DNA of 19,329 nt from a virus (taxonomy: Duplodnaviria > Heunggongvirae > Uroviricota > Caudoviricetes): positions 1 to 19,329 of IMG/VR virus record IMGVR_UViG_2802429248_000011; one strand, written 5' to 3'. The notes beneath the pieces were generated by a model, which ran no database searches, was not told where the DNA came from, and saw nothing but the letters and a program-made list of their open reading frames with translations. Shown here piece after piece: positions 1 to 15,875 of the stretch; within the stretch, counting starts at the first letter, position 1, and every line of letters starts with the position of its first letter. The position numbers were made by a program, and so were the translations under genes.

Positions 1-462
1 ATCCCGTTTCAGGAAATCAACATGTCGGTTTTCCAGTTCCGGAAAACGCCGCTGTACCGAGAGAGGGATCCCGTCAAGAATACTGGCAATTTCACCTGCG
101 ATCCGTGACAGCACGAAAGTACAGAATGCGGTTTCCACCACTTCTGCGGAGTCTCTGGCATTCTTCAGCTCCTGGGCGTCAGCCTGCGCACGCGTAAGTC
201 GATGGCGTTCGTACTCAATAGTCCCAGGCTGGAGATCTGCCTCGCTGGCAGCCCTGTAATCCTCAACCTCTTTACGGAGTTTTTCATTTTCGATATCAGC
301 TTCCCTCTGCGCATACCACTGAATTGCCATGGCGGTATCAAATACAGATTCAACGCCCTTACCACCTCCGGAGACGCAAGGGAGTCCCTGAGACTGCCAG
401 CGTTCAATCGTTCGCGGATCCACGTTGAAAATTTCGGCAAGTTTCTTTTTATTAACCTTCAT
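1..462 (-). CDS. nu1: Terminase small subunit (Nu1-type); N-terminal 154 codons, 3' end runs off the window
   Basis: It is missing from the ORF track because no stop falls inside the window. My minus-strand translation from the ATG at 462-460 stays open to position 1: [154 protein letters not shown]. From about residue 55 onward it matches lambda Nu1 as I remember it. The N-terminal winged-HTH part differs. It lies directly beside cos. Confidence 0.93.
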
Positions 463-486
463 GAAACAGTCTCACAATAAATACAG

Positions 487-600
487 GGTCCGACATGAAA
501 GTGCCCGAAAATGACTTTTTTAGGCGTTTTCATGTCGGACCTTTTACGGATTCGATATTAGAAAAAACAGATAGTTATGTTCGAGAAGTACCGACATGAT
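487..600. repeat. cosB-like terminase-binding repeats (three R-type sites)
   Basis: ggtccgacatgaaa (487-500) and its perfect inverted copy tttcatgtcggacc (528-541) flank an A/T-rich spacer. A third copy in the same direction as the first, accgacatga, lies at 590-599. The R3-spacer-R2-R1 arrangement between cosN and the Nu1 start mirrors lambda cosB, but the repeat sequence is not the lambda one. Confidence 0.7.
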
Positions 601-638
601 TTTCCCCGGAAAATTTTCATAAATAGCGAAAACCCGCG

Positions 639-650
639 AGGTCGCCGCCC
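639..650 (-). other. cosN, 12-nt cohesive-end sequence (GGGCGGCGACCT on the minus strand)
   Basis: The plus strand reads aggtcgccgccc. On the minus strand the context is ...gcgggtcctttccggcgatccgacaggttacg|GGGCGGCGACCT|cgcgggttttcgctatttatgaaaattttcc. This matches the lambda right-end/left-end junction from memory. Confidence 0.9.
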
Positions 651-922
651 CGTAACCTGTCGGATCGCCGGAAAGGACCCGCAGGCGTTCTGGTTTATTC
701 GCAATGAATTCAATATCTGACAGACCTGAATACACGTCCTGTTTCTTCCACCCCCGCACAGGACTGGCGAGCATGAGGGACAAACCCGCGCACCATAAAC
801 GCGGTAAAAACCCGGTGTGCATCGTTTTTGATTATTCCCGCACACTCACGCAGAAGGAATTCCCCGTCGGGCTACGGTCATGGTTAATGCGGGAATACAG
901 CGACGATACTGCGCATGATGTG

Positions 923-1472
923 TCAGACTTGAATACCCTTATCGAATCCCGGTAATAAAAACTGTCCCTGTCTCTCCAGGCGTTTCAGCTTTGCAAGCAA
1001 TTGAGGTTTTTTCGTTCTTCCCCAGCGATTGAGCAGCCGGCCAGACATACTGGCGACATCCTTCTCTTTCATATACTCCAGCATTATGGCGTTGCGTTCT
1101 GCTTCATAACTTTCGCTGTACTTACGGAGTTCTGCTGACATCCAGTTAAAGGCATTTATATAGGCCTCTTTAACGGCGTCGGCTTTTGCGCCATTAAATC
1201 CCATGACCAGCATAACGAAGCCACTAAAGTCCATGCGGTAGTAAATCTGTTTCTTGTCGAAAATCCCTAATTCATTGATTTTTTTCGGCAACGCAAAAAT
1301 GCGCGCTCCGGAAATCTTCAGAGCAATGACAATTTTTCAGCGCCCTCAATACGTCCGCGTGACGCTTACCAAAAGCCTTTGCGATCTGGAAGGTGTCAGT
1401 TACCGGTTGACCTTCTGCTGCGGTAACTAACTGGCGAAAGTCAAAGTCATGATTCACAATTAATTCATTCAT
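923..1472 (-). pseudogene. Rha-family phage regulatory protein, split by a frameshift at an A7 run
   Basis: The N-terminal part runs from the ATG at 1472 to the TGA at 1274-1272: MNELIVNHDFDFRQLVTAAEGQPVTDTFQIAKAFGKRHADVLRALKN...HFCVAEKNQ*. The Rha-like continuation is in the neighbouring frame (923..1291): ..KKINELGIFDKKQIYYRMDFSGFVMLVMGFNGAKADAVKEAYINAFNWM... The junction sits on a 7-nt homopolymer at 1279-1285. Removing one A gives a single ORF of about 182 codons. Confidence 0.7.
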
Positions 1473-1622
1473 GGCGTTACCTGCTACTTCGAAATGAACC
1501 TTTGCCGCACAGGAAACCAGCCCACCGAGGCTCGCCAGCACTAACTGGTATCCTCAAAGGCCCATTCCAAAGGGTCAGGTTCGGTGGTTATTGTGCGCTG
1601 CGGTGCGCGGTGAAATACCTAT

Positions 1623-1648
1623 ACAAAAACGCCCCGCATCTGCGAGGC
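1623..1648 (-). terminator. Putative intrinsic terminator downstream of Rz
   Basis: The minus strand reads gcctcgc-agat-gcggggc followed by gtttttgt. The stem is 7 bp with one mismatch. Confidence 0.45.
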
Positions 1649-1690
1649 ATTTTCCTGAAAGTCACTTGTTAAATTTCAGTGAAATTAAAA

Positions 1691-2128
1691 TTATTTTAAG
1701 CACTGCGTCCTAATGTACTCCTGCAAGTAGTTAACCTGCGCGGTTATCCTGTCGATTCCACTTCGGAGACGGTAATAATTGAGTTCAGCATCTGCTGTAA
1801 GTCTTGGGCTTTCTCCATCGCCCATGCCGCTGGCTCCGGTCTTTGACTTTGCACAGGAGGCGGCGACTTGCAGCCGCTTACGCCCAGCAGAAACATCATC
1901 ACGGAGACTTTCGATAGTCGCGTTAGCATCAGCAAGCTCCTTTGTATATCTGGCATCGAGTTCTGCTACATCACGTTGACGCTTCTGCATATCAGCGATG
2001 ATGGATGTGGCTTTATCGCGCTGGTCTTTGTAGGCGATGGCGTTATCACGGTAATGATTAACAGCCCATGACAGGCAGACGATGATGCAGATAACCAGAG
2101 CGGAGATAATCGCGGTTACTCTGTTCAT
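1691..2128 (-). CDS. Rz: Rz, i-spanin (inner-membrane spanin subunit)
   Basis: The start [31 protein letters not shown]... is almost identical to the lambda Rz N-terminus from memory. The ATG at 2128 overlaps the endolysin TAA (TAATG). It is the last gene of the S-R-Rz cassette. Confidence 0.9.
1744..1929 (-). CDS. Rz1: Rz1, o-spanin lipoprotein embedded out of frame inside Rz
   Basis: [20 protein letters not shown]|[16 protein letters not shown]... has a 19-aa signal peptide and lipobox Cys20, followed by a Pro-rich mature part. An AAGGAG SD lies 7 nt upstream of the ATG at 1929. The embedded architecture matches lambda Rz/Rz1. Confidence 0.85.
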
Positions 2129-2622
2129 TACTGACCCCACAAACAGATTTCACGCTCAATCTCACGACGAGTCATGAGACCTTTCCATTGCTTACCGCCA
2201 GCATATGTCCAGCGACGTAGCTGATCACATGCGCCTTTGATATCGCCCTGGTTTATTTTGCGAAGAAGCGTCGATGTTCTGAAATTGCCAGCACCCACGT
2301 TGTAAACGAATGAGTAAAGAGCGCCGCGCGTTGTTTCCGGTATATCGACTTTGATGTACGGGTTAATTTGTCTGGCGACAGTGGCAAGGTCTTTATTCAA
2401 GAGTGCTTTGCATTCTGCTTTGGTATACGTTTTACCGAGCATGATGTCTTTTCCTGTATGCCCGTGACATACAGTCCATACACCAACAATATCTTTGTAT
2501 GGTATGTAGCTGACACCTTCCAGACCATCGTTACCACTTGGGCCAGTGATTAACACTGATGCTATAGCAATTGCTCCGCCACCAATAGCAGCAACAACGG
2601 CTTTTCGTAATGATGGAGGCAT
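2128..2622 (-). CDS. R: SAR endolysin (phage 21 R / RrrD-type lysozyme)
   Basis: [27 protein letters not shown] is a Gly/Ala-rich SAR segment. It is followed by [23 protein letters not shown], the E-D-T lysozyme motif. The sequence is close to K-12 RrrD/YdfQ as I remember it. Confidence 0.93.
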
Positions 2623-2837
2623 TATTCACCTCTCGCAGCCTTACGCCTGTCTTCTTTAATCTTGAAATAAAGATTTGTCAGATACGTCAGCAGGCCAAAA
2701 ACCAGGCTACCCAGCACACCGATTGCAGCCCACTGTGACGGAGTTACTTTATCGAGTAACTGCAATGCCCAGAAACCAGCATTACCCGCCGATGTGCCAT
2801 AGGCAACACCTGTTGTTAACTTATCCATTGATTTCAT
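2622..2837 (-). CDS. S: Class II (pin)holin, S21 / EssD/EssQ type, with dual-start motif
   Basis: [26 protein letters not shown]...[19 protein letters not shown] has two Met codons (M1, M4), two TM segments and a charged C-terminus. A GGTGAGGA SD is present. The stop overlaps the start of R. Confidence 0.92.
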
Positions 2838-3056
2838 ATCCTCACCCCGATGTACACGGATGGTGCAATATGTTTGAAAATATCGGAGTCTACGGGGTAG
2901 TTTTTACAGCACACGTTGTTCTCAACGGCGCTAAAAAAACATACACATTAAAAATGTGGTTAATTATTTTGAAAGAAAATCATATATTAATTAATAATAC
3001 GAGAAATGTTTTCATATTTAGTGTACTGTATACGGCCATTTATACAGGAAAAGCCT

Positions 3057-3227
3057 ATGTCAGAACGTAAAGACTCAAAATCACGCCGTAATTATCTCGT
3101 TAAATGTTCCTGCCCAAACTGCACCCAAGAGTCAGAACACAGTTTTTCAAGAGTACAAAAAGGTGCCCTTTTGATCTGCCCTCATTGCAACAAAGTATTC
3201 CAGACAAATCTTAAAGCTGTAGCCTGA
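3057..3227 (+). CDS. 56-aa zinc-ribbon miniprotein (YnfU-like)
   Basis: MSERKDSKSRRNYLVKCSCPNCTQESEHSFSRVQKGALLICPHCNKVFQTNLKAVA contains CxC-x2-C ... CPHC. An AGGAAA SD lies upstream of the internal ATG at 3057. The upstream 17 codons of the tracked ORF look noncoding. The resemblance to Qin YnfU is from memory only. Confidence 0.65.
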   Translation: MSERKDSKSRRNYLVKCSCPNCTQESEHSFSRVQKGALLICPHCNKVFQTNLKAVA

Positions 3228-3286
3228 TTGATTTTATTCGCAACAAGTATTTTTTATATTTTAATAATATATTTAAAGCAGATAAT

Positions 3287-3312
3287 AAAAAACCCGCCTG
3301 AGCGGGTTTAAT
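3287..3312. terminator. Bidirectional intrinsic terminator
   Basis: aaaaaacccgc-ctga-gcgggttta. On the minus strand the stem is followed by ttttttatt (strong). On the plus strand it is followed by tttaatatt (weaker). Confidence 0.7.
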
Positions 3313-3590
3313 ATTGTGGTGCTTTTTGTGAGAGTCATCCACTTACGCACTTTGTTTTGCTATGCCAGCAGTTAGCTTCTGCTGTAAAACTATTCATGCA
3401 GCAAACCTGCACTTCACCACAATGGTTAGCATACTTTTCCTGATTAAGTTATTACCAAATATGCTGGCCATTGTTTCATGTATTGGACCGCCTTACTCTT
3501 TATTAAAGAGATCCAATATTCACCACTCTGTCTGTATCTCCACTCAGGCATCAGCCTTCTTCGTTATCGTATACAGACAAACTATGAATT

Positions 3591-3806
3591 TTAATCATTA
3601 ATGATGACATTTGCTGCTGCAGGACCTTTAGCACCACTCTCTACAGAGAAGGTAACCTTTTGACCTTCAAATAAGGTTCGATAATTATCATTCTGAATCG
3701 CAGAAAAATGCACAAACACATCTTTACTACCATCAACAGGAGAAATAAAGCCGAAACCTTTATCAGCGTTAAACCATTTTACTAAACCAGTCATTTTATT
3801 TGACAT
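3591..3806 (-). CDS. cspB: Cold-shock protein CspB
   Basis: [71 protein letters not shown] carries the RNP1/RNP2 motifs and is near-identical to K-12 CspB from memory. Confidence 0.95.
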
Positions 3807-4002
3807 TCTACATTCCTTAACTTGAGCCTTTCGGCATAAATGGTTTGTATAACAGAAACGACTTCGTACTTAATTGGAGAGACTCAAAGAAGGAATAAGT
3901 GAATAACACCTGAAATGAGAACTGCTTTAGTAAACTACTTCGTATATCGTCTGTTCTTCAAACCGACGCAATCATTAACGCATAGTTGAACATATGAAGC
4001 AA
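3807..4002 (-). promoter_or_regulatory. cspB promoter and long cspA-type 5' UTR with cold box
   Basis: The minus strand reads TTGCTT (4002-3997), 17 nt, GTTAAT (3979-3974), then cggtttgaagaacagacgat (3965-3946). This parallels the cspA cold box cggtttgacgtacagac. The gccgaaaggc element lies near the SD. The leader is about 160 nt. Confidence 0.6.
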
Positions 4003-4105
4003 TGTTTATTTTAGACATCCAGCCATCTTCAACCCCATCAAAAAACTATAGCTTTCTTCAGGAACGTGTGTATAGTGCGCCAAGTTATCAGTATTAAGGA
4101 ATTTT

Positions 4106-4318
4106 TTGTCCCGTAAAATGACAGGAATTGTCAAAACCTTTGACTACAAAAGCGGCAAAGGTCTTATCATACCATCCGATGGCCGTATCGATGTCCAGCT
4201 GCACGTTTCTGCTCTCAATCTCCGCGATGCAGAAGAAATTACCACAGGATTACGCGTGGAATTTTGCCGAATCAATGGTCTACGTGGACCTTCAGCTGCC
4301 AATGTTTATCTTTCATGA
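4106..4318 (+). CDS. cspF: CspF/CspH-family cold-shock-domain protein (TTG start)
   Basis: [80 protein letters not shown] lies 5 nt upstream of the TTG. It is divergent from cspB, as in Qin. I cannot tell cspF from cspH without an alignment. Confidence 0.85.
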
Positions 4319-4372
4319 GCTATATTAAAGCTTTTACTTTAAGCCCCATCGGATCACACATGGAGAGTTTTT

Positions 4373-4462
4373 ATGAATAACCCCGTCTGCCTTGATGACT
4401 GGTTGATTGGCTTTAAAAGCTTATGCTGTACTTTGGCCGTAATAGCTCTGCTAATAATATAA
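4373..4462 (+). CDS. Possible 29-aa hydrophobic peptide
   Basis: A GGAGAG SD lies 5 nt upstream of the ATG. The product is [29 protein letters not shown], with a C-terminal TM-like stretch. It is below the ORF-track cutoff and I translated it myself. Confidence 0.3.
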
Positions 4463-4610
4463 TAAGCAGACTCATTGTGTTTAGGGACATTGTACTGGAA
4501 GAAAACATTTTAAACATCAGGCAAATAACTAAGTCACCAGCTAAATAATAAGTTAACAGACATGGGTCCCGGGATGAGGTTCAACATCACCATTGCCCCA
4601 TTTAAAGCAC

Positions 4611-4645
4611 AAAACCCGCTCATCAGCGGGTTTTCTAATTTCTTT
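4611..4645. terminator. Intrinsic terminator (bidirectional)
   Basis: aaaacccgct-catc-agcgggtttt is followed by ctaatttcttt on the plus strand. The minus-strand reading is followed by ttttgtgcttt. Confidence 0.65.
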
Positions 4646-5089
4646 CTAAACATCAGATATACAAAGCCCATCATTGAGGGAATCTTATCCATATTTTTTG
4701 AAAAATGCAAGCATCACGTTGCCATCTTCATTGAAAAACCTTTATCGTGTTACTTTTATCAATTGCACTTCAGCATAGAGTTATCCCAGGCAGCACTTTA
4801 AAGACTTCTACATTACACACACCTTGTCTCCCCTTCTCGTCATATCTGCAAGACCGATATGCATGACGCAGTACATACGCTGAACTGCTTTATCCATCAG
4901 CATATTCTAGTGCTAAAGCGACTTCAGTAGCAGAAGCAAAATTCTGCTACTGTGCCAAACAGGAGTAAACGTCATTTTATGTAATGTTGATTGAGTGGTC
5001 ATAGTATCACCTCAATAACAGCTCTTCGCCCTATCATTGAAAGCATATCTGCTATAATTAAAAAGCCACTTAACATCAGGACTTCAAAC

Positions 5090-5275
5090 ATGACTTCAAA
5101 TCAATCTGAAAACGAAATAGTTAATACTGTCAAAAAATATGCATCATGTGCTGACGATGCTTTGCAGGCAGGCAAAGAAAACGTTAAAGATAAATTTAGA
5201 AATTATCCACTGACTAGCGTGGTGGTCGCTCTAAGCATAGGGTTAACGCTTGGTTTTATTATTGGCAGAAAATAA
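5090..5275 (+). CDS. Short DUF883 (ElaB/YqjD/YgaM-like) tail-anchored membrane protein, 61 aa
   Basis: MTSNQSENEIVNTVKKYASCADDALQAGKENVKDKFRNYPLTSVVVALSIGLTLGFIIGRK. The C-terminal ..NP-x4-V-x-ALSIGLTLGFIIGRK resembles the DUF883 membrane anchor. An extended -10 TGcTATAAT lies at 5050-5058, and an AGGA SD lies 8 nt upstream of the ATG at 5090. Confidence 0.65.
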   Translation: MTSNQSENEIVNTVKKYASCADDALQAGKENVKDKFRNYPLTSVVVALSIGLTLGFIIGRK

Positions 5276-5332
5276 TCTTAAGCCTCCCATAAGTCGTACA
5301 CAATCACATCTACCAATTAATGTTCCATTAGT

Positions 5333-5360
5333 AAAAAACCACCTCCTGTGGAGGTGGTTT
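5333..5360 (-). terminator. Strong intrinsic terminator (minus strand; weak on plus)
   Basis: ccacctcc-tgt-ggaggtgg is a perfect 8-bp GC-rich stem (5339-5357) with A/T extension. The minus-strand reading is followed by tttttt. Confidence 0.75.
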
Positions 5361-5411
5361 AAGGATAGCAACAAAACACAACCTACTTTAAACGGCTATA
5401 TTCTGCTATAT

Positions 5412-5531
5412 CTAAATAATAGGTTCTCTTTTATCATCCGGTGAAAAAGGGTTCAATGGTTGCCCCTCATCAGGACGCTCAACGGGCTCATCATCAGGCT
5501 TACGGTCATCAAAATCTGGATGTTCTGACAT
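5412..5531 (-). CDS. Possible 39-aa acidic, Pro-rich micro-protein
   Basis: My translation is MSEHPDFDDRKPDDEPVERPDEGQPLNPFSPDDKREPII. An AGGGTGG SD-like element lies upstream. The ORF ends 52 nt before the 5333-5360 terminator. Confidence 0.35.
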   Translation of the reverse strand: MSEHPDFDDRKPDDEPVERPDEGQPLNPFSPDDKREPII

Positions 5532-5566
5532 ATTCCACCCTAGTATTTTTATGCAGGAAAGATTAT

Positions 5567-5674
5567 TTACTCTTTCCGGTTGTCTTTTTTATTATCCTTA
5601 CCCTTACTATCCTCATTGTTTTTATTCCTGTCATGAGATTTTTCATTTGAATCACTTACATATAATGTATTCAT
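5567..5674 (-). CDS. Possible 35-aa highly charged micro-protein
   Basis: My translation is MNTLYVSDSNEKSHDRNKNNEDSKGKDNKKDNRKE. A GGAG SD lies 5 nt upstream of the ATG at 5674. It sits just upstream of the 39-aa ORF on the same strand. Confidence 0.3.
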   Translation of the reverse strand: MNTLYVSDSNEKSHDRNKNNEDSKGKDNKKDNRKE

Positions 5675-6051
5675 GGGGACTCCAGTTTTTTAACAGCACA
5701 ATGCTGTATCTGTAATTATAGATGCAATTAATCATTATGGTATGTATGTTTCATGCACAAATCAGAAACGCATCTAGTGCTTTAATTAATATGGATTTTA
5801 TTGCTGTAGATTTACAAAAATTTTCATAATTAACCAGCAATATAAGACAAATATCTCATAACATGAGGGAAATCAAGCTCATTTAAAGCAATTTATAATT
5901 TTCATCCTACTATTTTCCCTACACTGCCAACACCAGTTTCGTCGCAACACTCTGACAAGACACCTATAAAATCAGTTTCGTTATCACCTTAATTTTCTTC
6001 ATGGGTAACAAACCGGTAATACATCGATAGCCTGATTGATGCACGTTACTG

Positions 6052-6153
6052 TTACCTCTTCCCTGCATCAGGATGGCTTCCCAAGATGATATGGTTAATC
6101 ACACTGGAACATTCACGCATAACCGTTTCCTTCATATCCTGCCGTTTTAGCAT
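6052..6153 (-). CDS. Possible 33-aa ORF in the Q-downstream leader
   Basis: A GAAGGGGA SD lies 6 nt upstream of the ATG at 6153. The product is MLKRQDMKETVMRECSSVINHIILGSHPDAGKR. There is no other support. Confidence 0.2.
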   Translation of the reverse strand: MLKRQDMKETVMRECSSVINHIILGSHPDAGKR

Positions 6154-6403
6154 GTCTTTTCCCCTTCTTGTTAATATCAATGACTAACACAAATCTAAAA
6201 AAGCCAGCAATGTAAAAAAACTGCATTCACGGCAACCAGAATGGTTACCGTTCTGCACAAAGTTTATGTCCACAAAAAAACCACTCTGCGCGGCTTATTG
6301 ATATTTTCCACCGGTATGCATATAAGGCTCATCATTGGAAAACTCTTTGCACGTTTCCTTAGAAAATACAATCGTTATGTCGCCATCGTTCGGTGAAAAT
6401 CTT

Positions 6404-7156
6404 TTATCTTGTCACTTTTCTCAGTTGTGCTTCTGCATACGCTTCTTCCTGCCAGCACTTTGTTACCAGTTTATCAATGACGTCCGCATACCCCTTGTAC
6501 CACTGATAATCTGTCAGGTCCGGTACCAACTTCTGGACATGACGTCGTGCCAGTGTGGTCGGTAAACGACTAAACCTGTTTCCATTACAACGCCCACAAA
6601 TCTTATAAACCGGTACGCCATGAAGCCGGGTTCTTTTTTCATCCAGGACAATACCTTTACCCTTACACCCTCTGCACGCTGTGCTGACTTCGCCCTTACC
6701 ATGGCAATGCTGACATAGTTCCTTCCCCCATTCTTCCTTGATAACAGATTCCCCACTTCTGTAGTGTTTCACCACTTCGCGCAATACATTATGAAATCCC
6801 GTACCTGCACAATGTTCACAGCGAGCCTTACTTGCCGCAGACCTGGAATAATCAGCAAAGGCAAAATTCACAAGGTAAGGGATGATCTGTAACCGGGTTT
6901 CTTCACTCAATTTGTTCAATATCGGGTTATCCAGTGCCATCGCGTAATTGAGCAGACCTTCAATCGCAAACTGAGGGTTCTGAACACCAACTTTTGCCAG
7001 AAATAAGGCAAACCCAAGCGGTGCTTTCGACTGCACCATCCCCTGCGCAGCCATCACATCCGTAATTGTTAAACCACCAGAGCCTGTCGCCGGTGCGTCA
7101 TCGCTCAGTTTTGGTGATTTCGGGGAGTAATATTTCGGTAAGACTTCAAGGTTCAT
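6404..7156 (-). CDS. Q: Late-gene antitermination protein Q (QuuQ-like, 250 aa)
   Basis: The start MNLEVLPKYYSPKSP has a GGAGA SD 6 nt upstream. The tracked ORF start at 7198 has no SD and overlaps the upstream gene. There are four Cys-rich repeats, and the position upstream of the lysis genes is typical. The length matches K-12 QuuQ from memory. Confidence 0.85.
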   Translation of the reverse strand: MNLEVLPKYYSPKSPKLSDDAPATGSGGLTITDVMAAQGMVQSKAPLGFALFLAKVGVQNPQFAIEGLLNYAMALDNPILNKLSEETRLQIIPYLVNFAFADYSRSAASKARCEHCAGTGFHNVLREVVKHYRSGESVIKEEWGKELCQHCHGKGEVSTACRGCKGKGIVLDEKRTRLHGVPVYKICGRCNGNRFSRLPTTLARRHVQKLVPDLTDYQWYKGYADVIDKLVTKCWQEEAYAEAQLRKVTR

Positions 7157-7169
7157 GCTCGTTCTCCAC

Positions 7170-8165
7170 TTACGCCAGCACGCCAATTGCCAGCGCACGA
7201 TCGATAAAACGAAATATCAGCTTCAGCTGGGAGCCATACTTCTCTTCAAATGCCACGGTATCCGCATGCAGCTCGTCGTGATGCTTTCTGCACAAAGGCA
7301 ACACAAAGAGGTCATGCGCTTTTGTAGCCATTCCACCCTGACCGTGGCCTATCAGGTGGTGGGGATCATCAGCAGGCTTTCCACAACATGCACACGGCTG
7401 TGTCTTAACCCAGCGCGTGTACTTTTCGTTAACCCAGCGGCGACGTTTGGGGCGTAACATAAAAGACTCCGGCGACTCCGGATCCACTTTCAGCGCCAGC
7501 ACCTTTTTCGCTTTATCCTGGATAATGCTGGTGGCAGGAACCGAAGGCACAAGGTCACTTTCCCGGGTGACAGACGGCACAACAGGCTTCGGTAATCTCA
7601 GTGCCTTACGGGCTGCACTTTCCGGTAAGGCATCCGCCAGGTCATTACGAATCAGCCACCAGCACAGTTCCGGCATTGTCACAACGTGACTATCATCAAA
7701 ACCGAGATCCCGACGCACAACAGACAACACCCAACGGGCACAGTTATCCGTTGCCATTGATTCCAGCCGTTCCGTGAACTGATCGCGCAGCTGGTTATCG
7801 CAGTGCCAGCACAGACGGATTGCGCCCGGGGCGTGTCGCATTGTGGTCATGTTCTCGCTGTGCCAGTCGGAATGAGGCCACTGGCAGCCCTTTTCACGAA
7901 GTAACCAGCTTTCAAGACATTCCACGCCACCAGCACGACGGATCACTGCCTCATTGCGGAACACGGCCCGAACGGCAGGATCATCCGCCAGCGGTTGTGA
8001 TGCCGCCGGAACGGCACCACTGGCGAAAGATGAATAACGCTCCGGCTCAGGCTCCAGCAGGACACGCCCCTGCATAAACAGGGGCATCAGCTCTGAACCT
8101 GGCCTGAACAATACGATCCCCATACGCGGGGCAATTTCAGGGGTCAGCAGTGCTCTCACGGTCAC
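7170..8165 (-). CDS. DUF968 / YdfU-like protein with C-terminal HNH-type zinc motif (start uncertain)
   Basis: ...WVKTQPCACCGKPADDPHHLIGHGQGGMATKAHDLFVLPLCRKHHDELH... is an HNH-like motif. The gene order Q / ydfU-like / rem-like is the same as in Qin. The annotated start is a GTG with no properly spaced SD; see the finding on the upstream homopolymer. Confidence 0.8.
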   Translation of the reverse strand: MTVRALLTPEIAPRMGIVLFRPGSELMPLFMQGRVLLEPEPERYSSFASGAVPAASQPLADDPAVRAVFRNEAVIRRAGGVECLESWLLREKGCQWPHSDWHSENMTTMRHAPGAIRLCWHCDNQLRDQFTERLESMATDNCARWVLSVVRRDLGFDDSHVVTMPELCWWLIRNDLADALPESAARKALRLPKPVVPSVTRESDLVPSVPATSIIQDKAKKVLALKVDPESPESFMLRPKRRRWVNEKYTRWVKTQPCACCGKPADDPHHLIGHGQGGMATKAHDLFVLPLCRKHHDELHADTVAFEEKYGSQLKLIFRFIDRALAIGVLA

Positions 8166-8211
8166 CTCAGCGAACGGTATTGCATGAACGCAGAAGAAAA
8201 AAATTCAGCCA

Positions 8212-8469
8212 TCACGCAGTAAACTCCTTCACCAGCGTTTCAAACTGGCTTACCTGGCCTTCCAGTTCCGCCACGCAATCCACCAGCTCATCCACCGCCT
8301 TTTGTGTGCGGTGTTTTGCCTGCAGCAGATCACGCAGCGCCGGAGTAAGCTGCTTGCAGAGCGTATCCTTTGCCACGCTCGTTTTTTCCATCTGTTCAGC
8401 ACAACGAAGCATCTCCTGTGCCTGCCGACGAAGTTGTTCCGGTGAAACAGTGGTTGTTCTGTTATTCAA
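8212..8469 (-). CDS. Small helical protein, Rem-like (85 aa, TTG start coupled to the helicase stop)
   Basis: MNNRTTTVSPEQLRRQAQEMLRCAEQMEKTS...ELEGQVSQFETLVKEFTA is coiled-coil-like. The TTG at 8469-8467 overlaps the helicase TGA at 8468-8466. The position matches rem in Qin. The identity is from memory and not verified. Confidence 0.6.
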   Translation of the reverse strand: MNNRTTTVSPEQLRRQAQEMLRCAEQMEKTSVAKDTLCKQLTPALRDLLQAKHRTQKAVDELVDCVAELEGQVSQFETLVKEFTA

Positions 8470-9866
8470 AATAAACGCTCCGTTTTACTGCCCGACATGC
8501 GTTTATTGCTGTATCTGCGCGGATTGCCCGGAGTCATGGGTGTGGAAAGAACCCGGGCACTCTCCTGGTCCACAGGCAGAAAATGTCCGTTATAAAAACG
8601 CCGGTAAATCGTCCCCAGAGAACCGTTACGTTGTTTCGTGATATTGATTTCTGCGATGCCCCTGGCCTGCGTATCCGGGTTGTACACTTCATCCCTGTAA
8701 AGCATCAGAATGATGTCTGCATCCGCCTCTATTTCTCCGGAATTTTTCAGGTCCGAGTTCATGGGGCGTTTATTGGGTCTGGATTCCACGCCGCGGGAGA
8801 GCTGGCTAAGAGCAATCAGCGGAAAACCGCCGGATTTTGCCAGGCTTTTAAGTCCCTTTGAGATTTCCCCCACCGCAAGGTCGTGACGCCCCGTGCTGCG
8901 GGTTTTAATCAGGCCGAGGTAATCGACCACCACCAGCGCCGTTTCCGGGTGTTTCATCCGGTGGTGCTTCGTGGTTGCACATATCTCATCAATGGTCAGG
9001 TTTGCCTGGTCCACCATCCAGATATTACGCCCCGTCATTCGTCCCACGCCCTGCGAGAAACGCGCCCAGTCTTCATCTTCAAAACGGGCAACAGACTTAA
9101 GACGTGATACCGGCATTCCTCCAGCCGCAGACACCATACGTTCACCAATCTGGATGTTCGACATCTCCATGGTGAACAGAAGCACACCATGCCCCTGCTC
9201 AGTCACCTTGTCGATGATGTCCAGCGCAAGTTCGGTTTTCCCCATCGAAGGACGGGCGGCAATGAATACCAGGTCTCCGGGCTCCATACCGCCCGTTTTT
9301 GCGTCCAGTTCATCAATACCGGTCATCAGCGCCCTGGATTTCTCCAGTCCCTGATTGCGGCATTCAACACGGTCGACCACTTCCGGAAGGACATCATCAA
9401 TGTGAACCGGCTGAATGACGCCCTTTCCTGTCGACAGTGTGACCATCATGTTCTGCGCATCCTTCAGAGCATCCTCGGCTGCTTCACAGGTATGCGCATC
9501 ACGTAAATTCTGTAATGCTTCAGTCAGTGTTTTTTCTGCATCGCGCAGTGCGGCATTTCGCCGCAGCGCTGCAACATAGTGCTCCAGTGAAGACTTCACC
9601 CAGGTTTTACGCCCGGTGTCGGTAATCACCGGGGCAAGTTCCGGCATCTCATTGCACAGCAGCACGGGGTCAATGACGCCGGATACGCGAGCCTGTCTGC
9701 AAATCCCCGCGTAAATATCCCTGTACTGACGCACGAAAAAGACATCCGCCGGAAGCGTGGCCAGAATATCCATCACTTCCGGATCAGCCCCACGCAGAAA
9801 AAACGCGCCAATCACGGCACCTTCCAGGTCATCGTTACGCCATGCCGGATTTGTCGTTTTTGTCAT
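8466..9866 (-). CDS. Replicative DNA helicase, DnaB family (P22 gp12-like)
   Basis: The Walker A motif is IAARPSMGKTELALD. Typical DnaB C-terminal motifs are present (LVVVDYLGL, SQLSRGVESRPNKRP, ADADIILMLYRDEVY). The start MTKTTNPAW at 9866 overlaps the upstream stop (ATGA). The 13 extra codons in the track are unlikely. Confidence 0.92.
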   Translation of the reverse strand: MTKTTNPAWRNDDLEGAVIGAFFLRGADPEVMDILATLPADVFFVRQYRDIYAGICRQARVSGVIDPVLLCNEMPELAPVITDTGRKTWVKSSLEHYVAALRRNAALRDAEKTLTEALQNLRDAHTCEAAEDALKDAQNMMVTLSTGKGVIQPVHIDDVLPEVVDRVECRNQGLEKSRALMTGIDELDAKTGGMEPGDLVFIAARPSMGKTELALDIIDKVTEQGHGVLLFTMEMSNIQIGERMVSAAGGMPVSRLKSVARFEDEDWARFSQGVGRMTGRNIWMVDQANLTIDEICATTKHHRMKHPETALVVVDYLGLIKTRSTGRHDLAVGEISKGLKSLAKSGGFPLIALSQLSRGVESRPNKRPMNSDLKNSGEIEADADIILMLYRDEVYNPDTQARGIAEINITKQRNGSLGTIYRRFYNGHFLPVDQESARVLSTPMTPGNPRRYSNKRMSGSKTERLF

Positions 9867-10753
9867 GCTGCCACACCTCTGATATGCGCACGGTAGCTTT
9901 CCCAACCAAACACCAGGCAGTTACACCCACCATCAGTAACGCGATCCACAATCCGTTCACCAATGGATTCTTTAAGCTGTTCAAACGTCAGGTTGCTGAT
10001 CAAAATTGTCGGTAAAACGCTTTCGTAACGCGCATTTATGATTTCCTGCAGGATGGTTATCTCTGTAGGCGTGCCGAACTGCACACCAACCTCATCAATG
10101 ATCAGCAGGTTCAGTGAGGCGAAATGAGCGAGAACTTCATCCTCGGTACGCTCTGAATTGTGGCGCCAGGTATTTTTCACAGCGCGGGTCAGTCGCATAA
10201 CATCCGTAATTTCGACGGTCGCCTGGTGGTGGCGAATAATATTTTTTGCCATTGATACAGCCAGATGATTTTTCCCGGTACCACAATTGCCAATCATGAC
10301 CATGCTGGTACCCGCAGCAAGACACTTCTCCCATGAACCGGCATAGCGCCGACAAGCCTCAAGATTTCTCTGTGCGTCAGCATTCACCGCCTGATAATTC
10401 TCAAACTCGCAGTTCTGGAAGCGGCGGGCAATACCAGCCCTGTCGAGTAATTCATGAACTTTCAGGATGCGTAACGCCTCCTGTACCTGATCCAGCTCAT
10501 TCGCAATGCAGGTCGGGCAACCAGACACCCGTTTGATGGTTTCCCCACGAACATCTGGCCCTTTCAACACCAGACGTGTGTATTTCCCGTGTTTCTCACA
10601 CTCAGCAGTATCCTCGCTTGTCAGCCAGTGTTCACAGCGCCACGGACGCTTCCCGACACGGGCAAACTGCATCTCCTCCTCCAGTTCCGCCCTGCGGTTG
10701 AGCAATTGCGCTTTGTCGTGTTGTGCGTAGTGTTTTTTTAACTGTTCAAACAT
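9863..10753 (-). CDS. DnaC/IstB-like AAA+ ATPase (helicase-loader type) with Cys-rich N-terminal extension
   Basis: The Walker A motif is GNCGTGKNHLAVSMA and the Walker B motif is LLIIDEVG. The N-terminal ~90 aa carries C40, C52 and C79-P-T-C82. A GAGGTGA SD is present. Confidence 0.85.
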   Translation of the reverse strand: MFEQLKKHYAQHDKAQLLNRRAELEEEMQFARVGKRPWRCEHWLTSEDTAECEKHGKYTRLVLKGPDVRGETIKRVSGCPTCIANELDQVQEALRILKVHELLDRAGIARRFQNCEFENYQAVNADAQRNLEACRRYAGSWEKCLAAGTSMVMIGNCGTGKNHLAVSMAKNIIRHHQATVEITDVMRLTRAVKNTWRHNSERTEDEVLAHFASLNLLIIDEVGVQFGTPTEITILQEIINARYESVLPTILISNLTFEQLKESIGERIVDRVTDGGCNCLVFGWESYRAHIRGVAA

Positions 10754-10772
10754 TGTTCATCACCTCGAAAAA

Positions 10773-11582
10773 TCACCAGTTGAAGTTCGTTGAACCGTAG
10801 TCCTGCTCACTGAATCCCGAGATCGGGAGGCCGGTAGTTCGCCCACCTCCGGGAGCGGCTGGCTGTTGCCAAGATTCCTCGAAGTGACGATCGGGTCCAA
10901 AGAACGTCGCAGCCTGCTTCACGAACTGTGTGCCGATATTTCCGGTAGCTCGTACCCAGGCGGCATACCGCTTCACGCCATCAAGCATGGTCTCCGGTTT
11001 TATTCCCTCCCTGATACGGGCTTTCCAGGCTTTGAAGGCTGCTGACTTGGAATTGCCACCGGCACGTTTGGGATATTCCTGCCAGGCCTGTTCAAATTCC
11101 GGTGAATATTCCTGTCGGGCAGAACGCGCTGGTGCAGACGCGTCAGCGGATGCGCCAATAGTTGATTCATTGACTGGTTCTTTGACTGGTTCAAAAGAGT
11201 GACTGGTTCTGGGTGAATCTCCTGCACTACCCCCTAGTGCAACTCCTGCACCACCTGGTGAATTTGTTGCACTAGGTAGTGAATTATTTGCACTACCACC
11301 TAGTGAATCTTTTGCACCATCAAGACGAAGAAGATAAATATTGCTCGAGTTGCCTTTTTCACCTTTCCGGGAAACTTTTTTTACCAGTCCCGATTCACAA
11401 AGAGCCGTAATATGATTCATCACAGAACGTTTGCTAATCTCGCACTGATCAGCAATATGCTGATAGCTGGGCCAGCACTCGCCCTGATCGCTGGCATTAT
11501 CAGCCAGCTTAATCAGAACCAGTTTTCGCAATGGATTCCCCACACGAATTTTCATCGCTTTAACCATCAGCTCCATGCTCAT
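10773..11582 (-). CDS. Replication initiator (lambda O-like role): N-terminal wHTH, low-complexity linker, C-terminal replication-protein domain
   Basis: The N-terminal HTH is LVLIKLADNASDQGECWPSYQHIADQCEISKRSVMNHITALCESGLV. A Gly/Ser/Ala linker is encoded by the iteron DNA. The C-terminal EFEQAWQEYPKRAGGNSKSAAFKAWKARI is typical of phage replication proteins. It lies directly upstream of the loader and helicase. Confidence 0.85.
   Translation of the reverse strand: MSMELMVKAMKIRVGNPLRKLVLIKLADNASDQGECWPSYQHIADQCEISKRSVMNHITALCESGLVKKVSRKGEKGNSSNIYLLRLDGAKDSLGGSANNSLPSATNSPGGAGVALGGSAGDSPRTSHSFEPVKEPVNESTIGASADASAPARSARQEYSPEFEQAWQEYPKRAGGNSKSAAFKAWKARIREGIKPETMLDGVKRYAAWVRATGNIGTQFVKQAATFFGPDRHFEESWQQPAAPGGGRTTGLPISGFSEQDYGSTNFNW
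11171..11340. repeat. Origin-like iteron array inside the initiator gene, followed by an A/T-rich stretch
   Basis: tgactggttc occurs three times (11171, 11183, 11200). Four 17-20 bp dyad-symmetric units follow. They start at 11223 (tgcactaccccctagtgcaa), 11247 (tgcaccacctggtgaat), 11268 (tgcactaggtagtgaat) and 11289 (tgcactaccacctagtgaat). A half unit lies at 11313. The period is 21-24 bp, and the array is followed by gaagaagataaatattgct. Confidence 0.7.
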
Positions 11583-11803
11583 AGAGCACCTCCCAGGCGT
11601 TTAAACATTTTTCCGGACTGAAACGCCATCAACGGATAGCTAATGGTGTAGTTACGCCCCAGTAATTCACACACAACTTTCTGGCTTTCGGTGCTGACCA
11701 GGCAAACCCGCAGAACGTGACCGTTGCTGGTGGCGAACCACTGCCCCACACGGGGGCAACGGTTGTATCGGTGATACAGGGAATTAACGATGTAGCGGAT
11801 CAT
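11579..11803 (-). CDS. Hypothetical 74-aa protein
   Basis: A GGAGGTG SD is present. ATGA overlaps occur at both ends, so the ORF is translationally coupled within the PR-type operon. Function unknown. Confidence 0.6.
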   Translation of the reverse strand: MIRYIVNSLYHRYNRCPRVGQWFATSNGHVLRVCLVSTESQKVVCELLGRNYTISYPLMAFQSGKMFKRLGGAL

Positions 11804-11994
11804 GGACGCACCTCCGCCGTAGTTACGTATTTAACCGGGCTACCTTTCATTGAGATGGTTTCACACATCTCTGCCGCTTTCAGTTCCGCCGTTTTTCTGG
11901 ATTTATAGCGACGGTGCCAGACAGATACATCCGTGCGAACTGATACATCGTTTCTGTATTCCGTAGTGGAGATGATGATTTCGTAACTAATCAT
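11800..11994 (-). CDS. Hypothetical 64-aa protein
   Basis: The start MISYEII at 11994 has a GGGAGG SD 6 nt upstream and an ATGA overlap with the upstream stop. Function unknown. Confidence 0.6.
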   Translation of the reverse strand: MISYEIIISTTEYRNDVSVRTDVSVWHRRYKSRKTAELKAAEMCETISMKGSPVKYVTTAEVRP

Positions 11995-12353
11995 GGGCGT
12001 ACCTCCCATTGATTACGGCGAAAAGCAGTGTGATTCAGGCTGGTTTCAGCCTCATGGAATGCTCCAATGCAGCTCTCGTAGTACCGCATTGTGCGTAGAC
12101 TTAACCCAAGCTGAAGCATCATCAGGCCATCAAGGGTGATGTAATAACCACGCAGGGAGTCACCATAGATGTGGTAAGTACCCGGTATGAAGTTGCGGGT
12201 AAAAAATTCGCGCGAGCAGTTCAGATACTCGATTTTGTCGACGATGTTCTGGTGCATGCGCTTAAAGTGGCAGGCAACATGCAGGGAGAAAATAACAGCT
12301 TTGCCGTTGACGACTTCGATTTTGAGGAATGGGGAAGTTGGGACTGTAGCCAT
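11991..12353 (-). CDS. Rha-domain-only protein (120 aa); a longer upstream start is possible
   Basis: The start MATVPTSPFLKIEVVNGKAVIFSLHVACHFKRMHQNIVDKIEYL...YYITLDGLMMLQLGL follows the Rha pattern. An AAGGAGG SD lies 8 nt upstream of the ATG at 12353. The frame stays open up to 12887, but the upstream part overlaps the previous gene, contains terminator hairpins, and the ATG at 12653 has no SD. Confidence 0.65.
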   Translation of the reverse strand: MATVPTSPFLKIEVVNGKAVIFSLHVACHFKRMHQNIVDKIEYLNCSREFFTRNFIPGTYHIYGDSLRGYYITLDGLMMLQLGLSLRTMRYYESCIGAFHEAETSLNHTAFRRNQWEVRP

Positions 12354-12517
12354 GATGGCAGCCTCCTTGATCGGTGAAAAACTTCCACCACCGGAGCTGC
12401 GAAACTCATGGGTGGTGAACTGAACAGGGTTCGCAGTACCGGCGATCAAGGAAACCGGCGAGCCTTTCGGCTCCCCTGCCCAGCCCACCATAATTCTGGC
12501 GTGCGTGAGCGCAGACG

Positions 12518-12540
12518 ATAAAAAAGACGCTGGCGCGTCG
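12518..12540 (-). terminator. Weak intrinsic terminator candidate within the PR-type operon
   Basis: The minus strand reads gacgc-gcca-gcgtc followed by ttttttat. The stem is a short 5-bp GC-rich one. Confidence 0.35.
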
Positions 12541-12676
12541 TATATCGCCTTGATCAATTCCGGGCTGCGACCCCCGGCACCCGCTTTATAAGGTGCTGGA
12601 ACAGTGTAACGTCCCGAAATTACAGAATCAATATTTTGGCTTGAAACATTCATATGCTTACTGGTATTTTTACTAA

Positions 12677-12766
12677 CGCAAATGTTCTTGGATGTTACTG
12701 GCTTACTTCTTTGTGAGGTTGCCTTTACTAACGTTGAGCGAGCCGGGTCACTACCCGGCTTTTTTT
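12677..12766 (+). ncRNA. Candidate oop-like antisense RNA (promoter, ~90 nt, strong terminator)
   Basis: The promoter reads TTGAAA (12641-12646), 18 nt including TG, then TATTTT (12665-12670). The terminator is gccgggt-cact-acccggc plus T7 (12742-12766) on the plus strand. That orientation opposes the surrounding operon. The T-run ends on the stop codon of the upstream Rha-like gene. Confidence 0.4.
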
Positions 12767-13473
12767 CACCGCTGCCAACCAATAACCTGAAATAACCCCA
12801 TTTTCGGGTGATACCAGCGAGTCCCTCGCGGTTCTGCTTCCGCCATAACCTGATGGAAAGCAGCCATAAACGGTTCCACGGCAACAATTGCGCGACGTGA
12901 CAACAATCCGTCCGGCGTCATGAACTCATGGGTGTCTGTAGGAATTTGATAAGCGTTCACCAGATTGCGGCATTTATCATCTGACAAACCGGTTTTCGCT
13001 TTCAGTTGGCGATATCCGGCATAGCCCTCACGAATGTTGCCCTTTTTGATTTGCTCAACTGTTTCGGCAACGTGGCTGACTTTTTCTTCCACCTGAGTGA
13101 TCCGTTTCTGCTGACGAACAGCTTCAAGAGCCATCGCGGCAACCATTTCGATTTCGCTCATTGGCTTACGGATCTGTTCTTCCAGTTCGCGCCAGCGATC
13201 TACTAGGCGGGCTGTGAATTCGGGACAAAGCTGTGCGACGACAATGATGCTGTCGCGCTTACCTTGTTCGCCTTCGAAGATGTAAGCACCTACATTTCGT
13301 TTTAATCCTAAGTTGTTGATTATTTCGAAATTCGCCATTGGCGCACTTCGAATAATCCCCTTATCCATGAGCCTTTCAATGCTGCGCTTAACATCTTTGT
13401 GTTGGCTGCCCACCAACTCTGCGATTTCAAGGCTGGTCATGGATGCTTTGCCGTTAAAAATTGCGGTGTTCAT
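12766..13473 (-). CDS. Rha-family regulatory / antirepressor-like protein (235 aa) at the cII position
   Basis: ASMTSLEIAELVGSQHKDVKRSIERLMDKG...YIFEGEQGKRDSIIVVAQLCPEFTARLVDRWRELEEQ. An AGGAGA SD is present, and an ATGA overlap joins it to the Cro-like stop. Confidence 0.8.
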   Translation of the reverse strand: MNTAIFNGKASMTSLEIAELVGSQHKDVKRSIERLMDKGIIRSAPMANFEIINNLGLKRNVGAYIFEGEQGKRDSIIVVAQLCPEFTARLVDRWRELEEQIRKPMSEIEMVAAMALEAVRQQKRITQVEEKVSHVAETVEQIKKGNIREGYAGYRQLKAKTGLSDDKCRNLVNAYQIPTDTHEFMTPDGLLSRRAIVAVEPFMAAFHQVMAEAEPRGTRWYHPKMGLFQVIGWQR

Positions 13474-13733
13474 TGTTGGTCTCCTGTGGGCTTGTCATCC
13501 TCTGTGTGCGCTAAGCTTGGATGTGGAAAAAGCTCTGGTAGGTCTGGACGAAATTCATACGCTTGGATCTTTCCGTCGACAGCTGCAACCAATAACGGCA
13601 CAAATTCTGGTGAAATCTTGTTCTTGCAGTTCAACCAATCGCAGACTGTTGACTGGGCCTTTCCGCATCGCTTGGCTAAGGCTTGCTGACTTCCAAGAAT
13701 CTCAATAGCTTTCTCTATGGCTTTATGTTTCAT
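13470..13733 (-). CDS. cro: Cro-like HTH regulator (YdaS/DUF1019-type), 87 aa
   Basis: MKHKAIEKAIEILGSQQALAKRCGKAQSTVCDWLNCKNKISPEFV... An AGGAG SD lies upstream of the ATG at 13733. It is divergent from the CI gene across the operator region. The tracked start at 13784 would lie inside the promoter. Confidence 0.85.
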   Translation of the reverse strand: MKHKAIEKAIEILGSQQALAKRCGKAQSTVCDWLNCKNKISPEFVPLLVAAVDGKIQAYEFRPDLPELFPHPSLAHTEDDKPTGDQQ

Positions 13734-13755
13734 AATCGCATCTCCTATTGAACGC

Positions 13756-13822
13756 ATAATAACAACAGGAAAAGCGATATTCAACGTTAAACCTAGAACA
13801 TTTATCGGAAAGCCGATAGACT
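13756..13822. promoter_or_regulatory. Divergent PR/PRM-type promoters with three 16-bp operator-like sites
   Basis: The minus-strand promoter is TTGAAT (13784-13779), 17 nt, TATTAT (13761-13756). The plus-strand candidate is TAGAAC (13794-13799), 17 nt, TAGACT (13817-13822). A perfect palindrome TATCGGAAAGCCGATA lies at 13803-13818. Two related sites, aacaggaaaagcgata (13764-13779) and caacgttaaacctaga (13782-13797), each match 11/16 to one of the clearer operator sites. Confidence 0.65.
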
Positions 13823-13852
13823 AGCCAAGATAGAGAGGGGAGGAAAATCGCA

Positions 13853-14545: not shown

Positions 14546-14563
14546 GCAAAAATCATTTAACCC

Positions 14564-14589
14564 GCCCACTCTTAAGTGGGCTTTTTTTT
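14564..14589 (+). terminator. Intrinsic terminator after cI
   Basis: gcccact-ctta-agtgggc followed by T8. Confidence 0.85.
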
Positions 14590-14595
14590 GGAAAA

Positions 14596-14638
14596 AATCG
14601 ATAAACCGATTGACAGGCGAAATCGGTAAACCTATTAT
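14596..14638 (+). promoter_or_regulatory. PL-type early promoter with two overlapping operators
   Basis: The promoter is TTGACA (14610-14615), 17 nt, TATTAT (14633-14638). The operators are AATCGATAAACCGATT (14596-14611) and AATCGGTAAACCTATT (14621-14636). They are related to the palindrome at 13803-13818. Confidence 0.8.
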
Positions 14639-14687
14639 TATGGCATAGGTATCGAACTCACCAAAGCAATTATAGAGGATGAGAAAA

Positions 14688-15871: not shown

Positions 15872-15875
15872 GTCA

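Follow-up and report, generated by a model that had tools for sequence, protein, structure and literature searches.

A duplicated and reciprocally decayed late-control module probably separates the Q antiterminator from its promoter in a Qin-type prophage

The interval between the antiterminator gene Q and the holin gene S is a moron site of lambdoid phages, holding stx in Stx phages and nmpC in DLP12. In lambda, the hexamer AACGAT at +1 to +6, followed by a GGG discriminator-like sequence, causes a sigma-70-dependent pause at +16 (PMC4005639), and the mechanism of lambda Q has been described as well (PMC9388147). Among closer relatives, the Escherichia coli K-12 prophage Qin, phage 2H10, and SfV all have about 277 bp between the Q stop codon and the next gene, and this short stretch holds the late promoter PR' (TTGCAT-17-TAAAAT, with TAAGAT in SfV), CAACGATGGG, and the hairpin AAAACCCGCTGATGAGCGGGTTTT. 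Here we analyze the Q-to-S interval (2838-6403) of a 19,329-nt stretch of Caudoviricetes DNA, positions 1 to 19,329 of IMG/VR record IMGVR_UViG_2802429248_000011, which as a whole we call the window. In this interval the module comprising the Q 3' end, PR', the pause element, and the terminator tR' is present twice, as a direct repeat (D1/D2) with a spacing of 1662-1664 bp.

K-12 Qin (ydfT/quuQ, ynfS, cspF, cspB, ynfU, essQ) and 2H10 have the same gene order, orientations, terminators, and PR'/tR' unit as the window, and the Qin proteins are 97-100% identical to the window's. The distance from the Q stop to ynfS sets them apart, since the ~277 bp of K-12 and 2H10 hold a single PR', while the window has 1941 bp, taken up by a decayed copy of PR', 1.48 kb of mosaic and orphan DNA, and the remnant of a Q gene. 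Copy A of the module (6461-6275, minus strand) follows the intact Q gene, and copy B (4799-4604, minus strand) follows the 57-nt Q remnant. The PR', pause, and tR' portion of copy A, directly after Q (6275-6403, minus strand), is a direct repeat of copy B that appears to be a decayed relic. Its promoter reads TTGTAT-17-AAAGAG, with the -35 equivalent at 6371-6366 and the -10 equivalent at 6348-6343, and the latter has lost its T residues at -12 and -7. An AATGAT hexamer is present at 6336-6331, and a weak hairpin at 6296-6278 is followed by a T run. The same portion of copy B (4604-4741, minus strand) is, by homology to reference modules, a probable functional late promoter unit. It has a -35 element TTGCAT (4710-4705), a 17-nt spacer (4704-4688), and a -10 element TAAGAT (4687-4682); transcription is predicted to start at 4675, where the pause element AATGAT (4675-4670) begins, followed by GGG (to 4667), and the tR' hairpin (4634-4611), with a predicted 3' end at 4607, would give a short RNA of about 69 nt. 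The Q remnant just upstream (4742-4799, minus strand; repeat D1) is the dead last 57 nt of a Q gene, with its old stop codon at 4744-4742, and is 75% identical to 6389-6461.

The two copies have changed in different places. Against four reference modules (SfV, K-12, 2H10, and PhiR42_1), 12 of 29 positions from -35 to -10 are changed in copy A and none of 29 in copy B, and for the terminator these counts are 10 of 28 and 0 of 28. Over the last 57 nt of Q the reverse holds, as copy A keeps the frame intact and copy B is changed at 11 of 58 positions and has lost it. The 12 changed positions of copy A differ from every reference and include most of the presumed Q-binding spacer, while the spacer of copy B is identical to the PR' spacer of SfV and K-12. 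Promoter scores follow suit (lambda 12.2 bits, K-12 10.3, copy B 8.8, copy A -0.7), as do hairpin energies, at -17.5 kcal/mol for copy B (4645-4600) and -8.5 kcal/mol for copy A. The AATGAT-GGG of copy B matches the sigma-dependent pause layout of lambda AACGAT-GGG, and AATGAT is known from ordinary prophages too. Of the 80 Q relatives that are closest in IMG/VR, 79 have the promoter 29-mer with no more than 4 mismatches, fixed 31 nt after the Q stop; the sole exception has the window's architecture, with 12 mismatches at that site and a perfect 29-mer 1693 nt downstream. Copy-B-type modules are found in 1912 of 5426 complete E. coli genomes (~35%), and the copy A sequence is confined to the 40 genomes that carry the intervening insert.

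The Q protein of the window is 97% identical to SfV Q and 94% identical to K-12 YdfT, and it should therefore recognize the spacer that these systems share with copy B rather than the altered spacer of copy A. That the elements of copy B are unchanged while the adjoining Q remnant has decayed implies selection. We thus favor, with good confidence, a reading in which Q would act on copy B as the late promoter and copy A would be a relic, with complementary halves of the module lost from the two. The late promoter most likely lies at 4710-4682, with +1 near 4675.

The two module copies could have arisen when a Q region of SfV type recombined with a late region of Qin type. Window 6123-7400, which spans Q, the terminator, and the start of orf47, has 90% identity to SfV, and window 2621-4799, which extends from S past PR' to include the final 57 nt of Q, has 95.8% DNA identity to K-12 Qin. 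Later decay would then have removed one element of each pair, so that copy A kept Q and lost its promoter, presumed Q-binding spacer, and terminator, and copy B lost its Q gene and retained promoter, spacer, and terminator. Because Q of the window is homologous to lambda Q (E=2.4e-37 to PDB 7UBM, with a match over both halves), the lambda mechanism is the appropriate model for how such a split unit might work. Q made from 6404-7156 would diffuse to copy B, bind the conserved spacer between -35 (4710-4705) and -10 (4687-4682), and capture RNA polymerase held by sigma-70 at AATGAT-GGG (4675-4667), and the captured polymerase would become resistant to termination. Diffusion and spacer binding are predicted from the sequence, while the later steps are modeled on lambda and on K-12 Term-seq. 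Without Q, the copy B transcript would end at tR' (4634-4611) as an RNA of ~69 nt. With Q, it would run 1838 nt to S, across tR', antisense to ynfS and cspF, through the cspB unit and its terminator, and antisense to ynfU. Upstream of the probable late promoter are the terminator at 5360-5333, two micro-open reading frames (micro-ORFs), and a 61-amino-acid (aa) gene; these would sit in the early operon's tail and not in the late operon, and would be self-expressed or silent.

This arrangement departs from the model in the first-pass annotation of this DNA, which had looked for PR'/qut next to Q within 6200-6403. The module there is the decayed one (-0.7 bits, 12 of 29 positions changed), and the intact module is 1.66 kb downstream. 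That model also had lysis-gene expression depend on read-through of about 3.5 kb and several terminators. Terminators must indeed be crossed, but the predicted path from 4675 to the S start codon is 1838 nt rather than ~3.5 kb, and it meets two strong terminators rather than three, tR' and the cspB hairpin at 3309-3290; a transcript starting near 4675 would meet the hairpin at 4611-4645 as its own tR' and not as an added obstacle. As the model presumed, no persuasive late promoter is seen just upstream of S. The best candidate there scores 7.1 bits (copy B, 8.8), a weak, background-level value, so the lysis genes still need read-through. The predicted late leader RNA (2838-4675, minus strand) is C-poor, with 16.7% C and 20.9% G, and C-rich, G-poor 80-nt segments make up 1 of 176 on the late leader versus 27 of 176 on the opposite strand. 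Rho loading on such a long untranslated leader would be disfavored, and the composition may reflect avoidance of Rho loading sites.

Several considerations weigh against copy B as the late promoter. Its start at 4675 is placed by homology and its Q-binding element by analogy with lambda, so that Q binding there is a prediction. Copy A retains a pause hexamer and a T run, and might have weak activity. The prophage of the window may be cryptic, as its split rha gene downstream of Rz would suggest. Finally, each change that the window's copy B carries is known from ordinary prophages, but it is by prediction that the combination of these changes is functional.

The window's copy B is an unusual allele. 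Over 4604-4690 (minus strand), between the -10 element and the terminator, it differs from the copy B of other insert carriers by 12-13 substitutions, of which most are transitions, and by a 2-nt insertion. The changes include TAAAAT to TAAGAT, TTTTTC to TCCCTC, and AACGAT to AATGAT, along with changes in the leader; the -35, spacer, and hairpin are the same as in other carriers. TAAGAT is the form found in SfV, and in ordinary prophages (L023-L028) AATGAT follows intact Q genes directly. The allele as a whole is present in two IMG/VR contigs only, exactly in L011, which is 99.4% identical to the window, and in closely similar form in L029. The combined allele has no match among GTDB species representatives and none in complete E. 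coli genomes, where the best identity is 91.8%. Together, the window and L011 are set apart from other carriers by this changed copy B, a different Q 3' end, and a 32-bp deletion at 6028.

Other readings of the duplicated module fare less well. We think it very improbable that both copies are active, as two tandem Q-responsive late promoters with the insert genes expressed as late genes from copy A. A sigma-dependent pause-like hexamer is kept in both copies, and the micro-ORFs have the late orientation and ribosome-binding sites; however, the strong terminator at 5360-5333, followed by a complete PR'/tR' unit, suggests an insert insulated from the late operon, and a two-promoter model faces the same objections as copy A on its own. 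The latter would be a late promoter directly after Q (~6371-6343), whose ~3.5-kb transcript passes three strong terminators, with copy B as an internal relic or booster. Copy A does occupy the canonical site, 31 nt after the Q stop as in 79 of 80 relatives, and TTGTAT and the pause hexamer AATGAT are still present in it, as is a hairpin followed by a T run. Yet its -10 element AAAGAG lacks the T at -12 and at -7, leaving the promoter with its negative score, its 12 of 29 positions depart from all references even though Q is 94-97% identical to theirs, and its sequence is found only together with the insert, all of which makes this reading highly unlikely. We likewise give little credence to the idea that the island is inert debris in a cryptic prophage, a snapshot of decay in which neither promoter matters and the lysis genes are never expressed, for although the insert consists mostly of non-coding relics of orf47, orf48, ren, rha, and Q regions, the split rha gene fits a cryptic prophage, and variation among carriers is evenly spread over ORFs and non-ORFs, the genes S, R, Rz, Rz1, and Q are intact, the functional elements of copy B are unchanged beside a decayed Q remnant, and two isolated phages have the same interval.

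The DNA added between Q and the probable late promoter is a rare 1.66-kb insert. Of 5426 complete E. coli genomes, 40 have its core (4800-6275), each in a single copy that is 98.4-98.7% identical, and the insert is also found in 14 IMG/VR contigs, always with the same architecture. Two isolated phages, HannyBb (from bird faeces) and PhiR63_1, carry this architecture, which indicates that the insert is compatible with a working phage. The 1.48-kb segment (GC content 0.369 versus 0.478) is absent from K-12, 2H10, and PhiR42_1. It resembles a moron in being extra DNA between conserved phage genes, off in composition and missing from close relatives.

The insert is a mosaic in which relics of phage genes, the Q remnant among them, surround an orphan core, and none of its relics has kept an open frame. 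Downstream of the tR' of copy A, 6052-6267 (minus strand) is an SfV orf47-type remnant that several lambdoid phages match at 76% identity; a truncated 33-aa ORF (6153-6052) within it has no family match, and 6068-6120 aligns with part of SfV orf48. At 5916-6035 there is a non-coding ren-like relic, ~73% identical to DNA annotated as 'protein ren' and lacking an open frame. The 32-bp deletion at 6028 falls within this relic, just downstream of the truncated orf47-like ORF; it is seen relative to 14 of 15 other aligned carriers, and only L011 has the same deletion. The orphan core itself (5015-5915) is 34% GC. A plasmid origin for it was considered and rejected, the only match being the 120-bp ren-like one. 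Between the core and copy B, 4820-5014 is a rha-like relic, again non-coding and without an open frame, 79% identical to the 'Rha protein' region of PhiR26_1.

Three small ORFs lie in the core. On the minus strand, a hydrophilic 35-aa micro-ORF (5567-5674) has a GGAG 5 nt before its ATG and is annotated as hypothetical in PhiR63_1, and an acidic, proline-rich 39-aa micro-ORF (5412-5531) has a Shine-Dalgarno-like sequence; the coding status of both is unproven. Neither has a family match or detectable relatives outside the insert, tblastn of the 39-aa ORF against phages finds relatives in HannyBb and PhiR63_1 only, and both are absent from the RefSeq annotation. The third, on the plus strand, is a 61-aa ORF (5090-5275, ATG at 5090) for a putative tail-anchored small protein, RefSeq hypothetical WP_000203370.1, preceded by an extended -10 TGCTATAAT at 5050-5058. 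It has distant relatives of similar size, with 36-50% identity and the same C-terminal helix, and is thus probably a real tail-anchored small protein. For one of these relatives the gene neighborhood comes from a single contig of 1.8 kb and gives no useful information. The first-pass annotation had called it DUF883-like, a label that stands only as a resemblance below threshold (DUF883_C, 12.3 bits where 27 is the cut-off, E=0.14); all members of the family stay below threshold for DUF883_C (E 0.005-0.2, relatives P0004-P0006 included). Between the convergent 39-aa and 61-aa ORFs is a strong intrinsic terminator (5333-5360, minus strand) with an 11-bp stem, -17.3 kcal/mol, and a U6 tail, and an exact 30-mer of it recurs in 14 IMG/VR contigs that all share this architecture. 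Among insert carriers there are 31 single-nucleotide polymorphism columns in 1476 nt (63 variable columns, of which 32 are the indel at 6028), evenly spread over ORFs and non-ORFs, and such low, even variation gives no power to test coding constraint on the micro-ORFs and the 61-aa ORF.

Published K-12 data bear on the copy B unit. Among the Term-seq 3' ends of Adams et al. 2021 (supplementary file 1; PMC7815308), 1642356 (minus strand) is an abundant 'orphan' end detected in three conditions, inside ...GAGCGGGUUUUGUGC. This position is the tail of a tR' hairpin identical to that of copy B and maps to window 4607. Further downstream, the minus-strand end at 1642188 is antisense to ynfS, which points to read-through of tR'; another, at 1641634, is within the cspB leader, the main cspB end at 1641224/6 lies upstream of the hairpin, and a plus-strand end at 1641060 falls at the cspB/ynfU hairpin, reflecting plus-strand use (PMC7815308). 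By homology with lambda, transcription is predicted to start at K-12 1642422 and at window 4675, which would give RNAs of 67 and 69 nt. The abundant orphan end at the Qin tR' therefore suggests a stable, unannotated RNA of ~67 nt at K-12 1642422-1642356 (minus strand), for which we found no Rfam family and no mention in searchable paper texts. Short PR'-tR' transcripts have been described elsewhere: StxS, an Hfq-binding small RNA, and lambda 6S are both of this type and constitutive in lysogens (PMC7547250). One might go further and suppose both that Q and the promoter it targets have become distinct loci, 1.7 kb from each other, with the intervening DNA shifted from the late operon to the early-operon tail, and that the ~69-nt PR'-tR' RNA, with its AGAAAGAAA stretch and terminator, is a StxS-like regulatory RNA of the Qin family that the window's leader allele has retargeted. 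We regard this combined proposal as speculative and rather doubtful.

The interval as a whole is bounded by the end of Q at 6404 and the start of S at 2837. It is AT-rich, with 37.4% GC against 47.8% elsewhere in the window (Q 0.473, lysis genes 0.477), and its longest fully contained ORF is 94 aa. These bounds and this composition agree with the first-pass annotation, whose gene list (ynfU, cspB, cspF, ynfS, the 61-aa ORF, and the two micro-ORFs), coordinates, and opposing orientations, with ynfU, cspF, ynfS, and the 61-aa ORF on the plus strand and cspB and the micro-ORFs on the minus strand, are also correct. Its view of a moron-type cargo island at the classic lambdoid Q-S site with the Qin cspB/cspF set stands too. 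The interval contains no tRNA genes of the kind found there in Stx phages. A consensus scan of the island yields 9 terminator-like sites, where shuffles give 2.8 +/- 1.5, and promoter-like sites are not above chance (13 against 13.9 +/- 3.9 expected); at a permissive threshold, Rfam finds nothing in the island beyond the cspA leader except chance-level matches. The terminators are clear; on the promoter side, the cspB leader has Rfam backing and the 61-aa gene has its TGCTATAAT. Three strong hairpins each separate convergent units, namely ynfU/cspB, cspF-ynfS/PR', and the 61-aa/39-aa ORFs. All three had been proposed as effective minus-strand terminators. They exist and are strong, but their effectiveness goes beyond what can be read from DNA; in the K-12 homologue, Term-seq places a minus-strand 3' end at the hairpin corresponding to 4611-4645, and at the cspB hairpin a plus-strand end only.

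The S-proximal half of the island (2838-4799) is the already annotated Q-S cargo of K-12 Qin. The first late gene is a class II holin S of the essQ/essD type (2622-2837, minus strand; Phage_holin_2_1 E=4.4e-34), identical to K-12 EssQ at 71 of 71 residues. Antisense to late transcription, on the plus strand, are ynfU (3057-3227), which encodes a 56-aa zinc-ribbon protein (Pfam YnfU E=2.5e-31; 55/56 identical to K-12), cspF (4106-4318), for a cold-shock-domain protein (CSD E=2.8e-21; 68/70 identical to K-12 CspF), and ynfS (4373-4462), for a hydrophobic 29-aa protein (Pfam YnfS E=4.7e-23; 29/29). In the late-transcript orientation is cspB with its long cspA-type 5' leader (3526-3967, minus strand; coding sequence 3591-3806; CSD E=1.3e-31; 69/71 identical to K-12 CspB); Rfam assigns 3526-3967 to the cspA thermoregulator RF01766 at 157.9 bits (threshold 78), and in K-12 cspB is induced by cold. 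The cold or stress expression that the first-pass annotation proposed for the cargo in the lysogen is a prediction from this K-12 precedent. The hairpin terminator between the convergent cspB and ynfU (3282-3312) reaches -15.5 kcal/mol (3320-3275) and has a U6 tail on the minus strand. The RefSeq annotation of the best match and that of K-12 name ynfU, cspB, cspF, and ynfS, plus one hypothetical 61-aa gene, and matches to the island come from E. coli Qin-family prophages and from phages HannyBb, PhiR63_1, 2H10, and Tritos. Synthesis of YnfS in K-12 has been shown by epitope tagging (PMC6001520), and initiation-complex ribosome profiling is the source for YnfU (bioRxiv 10.1101/511675).

The Q gene itself (ORF 6404-7198, minus strand; annotated 250-aa form 6404-7156) is of the ydfT/quuQ type and belongs to the lambda-Q family (Pfam Antiterm E=1.2e-53). 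It carries an extra DnaJ-like CxxCxGxG zinc-finger segment (DnaJ_CXXCXGXG E=3.7e-8). Compared with lambda Q, this Q family (YdfT, SfV Q) has ~40 extra residues (~121-160) with two more CxxC motifs, four in total, which suggests a second zinc centre in the DNA-binding arm. All late genes of the window are on the minus strand, including lysozyme R (2128-2622) and Rz (1691-2140), in which an Rz1 with a lipobox is embedded. Downstream of Rz, the rha-type gene (923-1541, minus strand) is split into overlapping ORFs at 1272-1541 and 923-1291, each with part of Phage_pRha; a frameshift is thus likely, and the prophage may be partly defective. Elsewhere are an integrase (18016-19329), a CI-like repressor (13853-14545), and other lambdoid prophage genes, namely Cro/YdaS-like, Rha, and replication genes and a DUF968/HNH gene just upstream of Q. 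In the early region, 12408-12596 (minus strand) has an Rfam C4 antisense RNA (12408-12495, 85 bits) adjoining isrK (12520-12596, 57.6 bits), both within an open frame (11991-12887) that has Ash and Rha domains; this locus resembles a P1/P7-type c4-ant or Gifsy-type IsrK immunity/antirepressor module. Homology with other island carriers begins exactly at the S/R boundary (2621) and stops within the DUF968 gene (~7400), and the lysozyme, Rz, and replication regions are unrelated alleles among carriers. These limits indicate that the Q-to-S block moves as a cassette among lambdoid prophages.

We found no paper text holding the module sequences and no relevant paper on ydfT/quuQ, and the arrangement proposed here, in which a late-control module was duplicated, decayed reciprocally, and thereby set Q apart from its promoter, is apparently undescribed. 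Its implications are modest. Late promoters should not be placed by position alone, given that here the unit next to Q would be a fossil and the working one would lie 1.7 kb away, and a displaced promoter changes which cargo genes count as Q-controlled. The locus also offers a small, clear case of complementary decay after duplication of a regulatory module. In K-12, it yields a lead, as about one in three complete E. coli genomes has a Qin-type PR'-tR' unit and the abundant, unannotated short RNA of the K-12 unit is apparently unstudied. None of this overturns current understanding, and most of the island is already annotated in K-12.

Measured against known systems, the window keeps the layout of the lambda PR' cassette, with a lambda-Q homologue, a pause hexamer at +1 to +6, GGG, an intrinsic terminator shortly after the promoter, and a holin operon. 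Unlike in lambda, the probable functional promoter unit does not adjoin Q, the intact unit starting 1.69 kb after the Q stop; the leader RNA would measure ~69 nt (194 nt in lambda), 1.8 kb of cargo, with genes in opposing orientations, separates tR' from S, and Q has what may be a second, CxxCxGxG zinc centre. The likeness to StxS and lambda 6S is one of position, a short RNA being predicted from a constitutive late promoter to tR', with an abundant stable 3' end in the K-12 homologue; the Qin-type RNA has no sequence similarity to them and no Rfam family. As with the stx and nmpC morons, low-GC cargo with its own terminators and putative promoters lies between late-control and lysis genes, but here the cargo consists of cold-shock-domain and small-protein genes, and part of it lies upstream of the late unit. 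In SfV, the order is Q, PR', terminator, orf47, and the terminator annotated there is the counterpart of the hairpin in copies A and B; SfV retains the intact promoter TTGCAT-17-TAAGAT, the hairpin, and full orf47 and orf48, all of which are degraded in the SfV-like block of the window. The locus is thus a modest architectural variant of a known system rather than a new kind of system.

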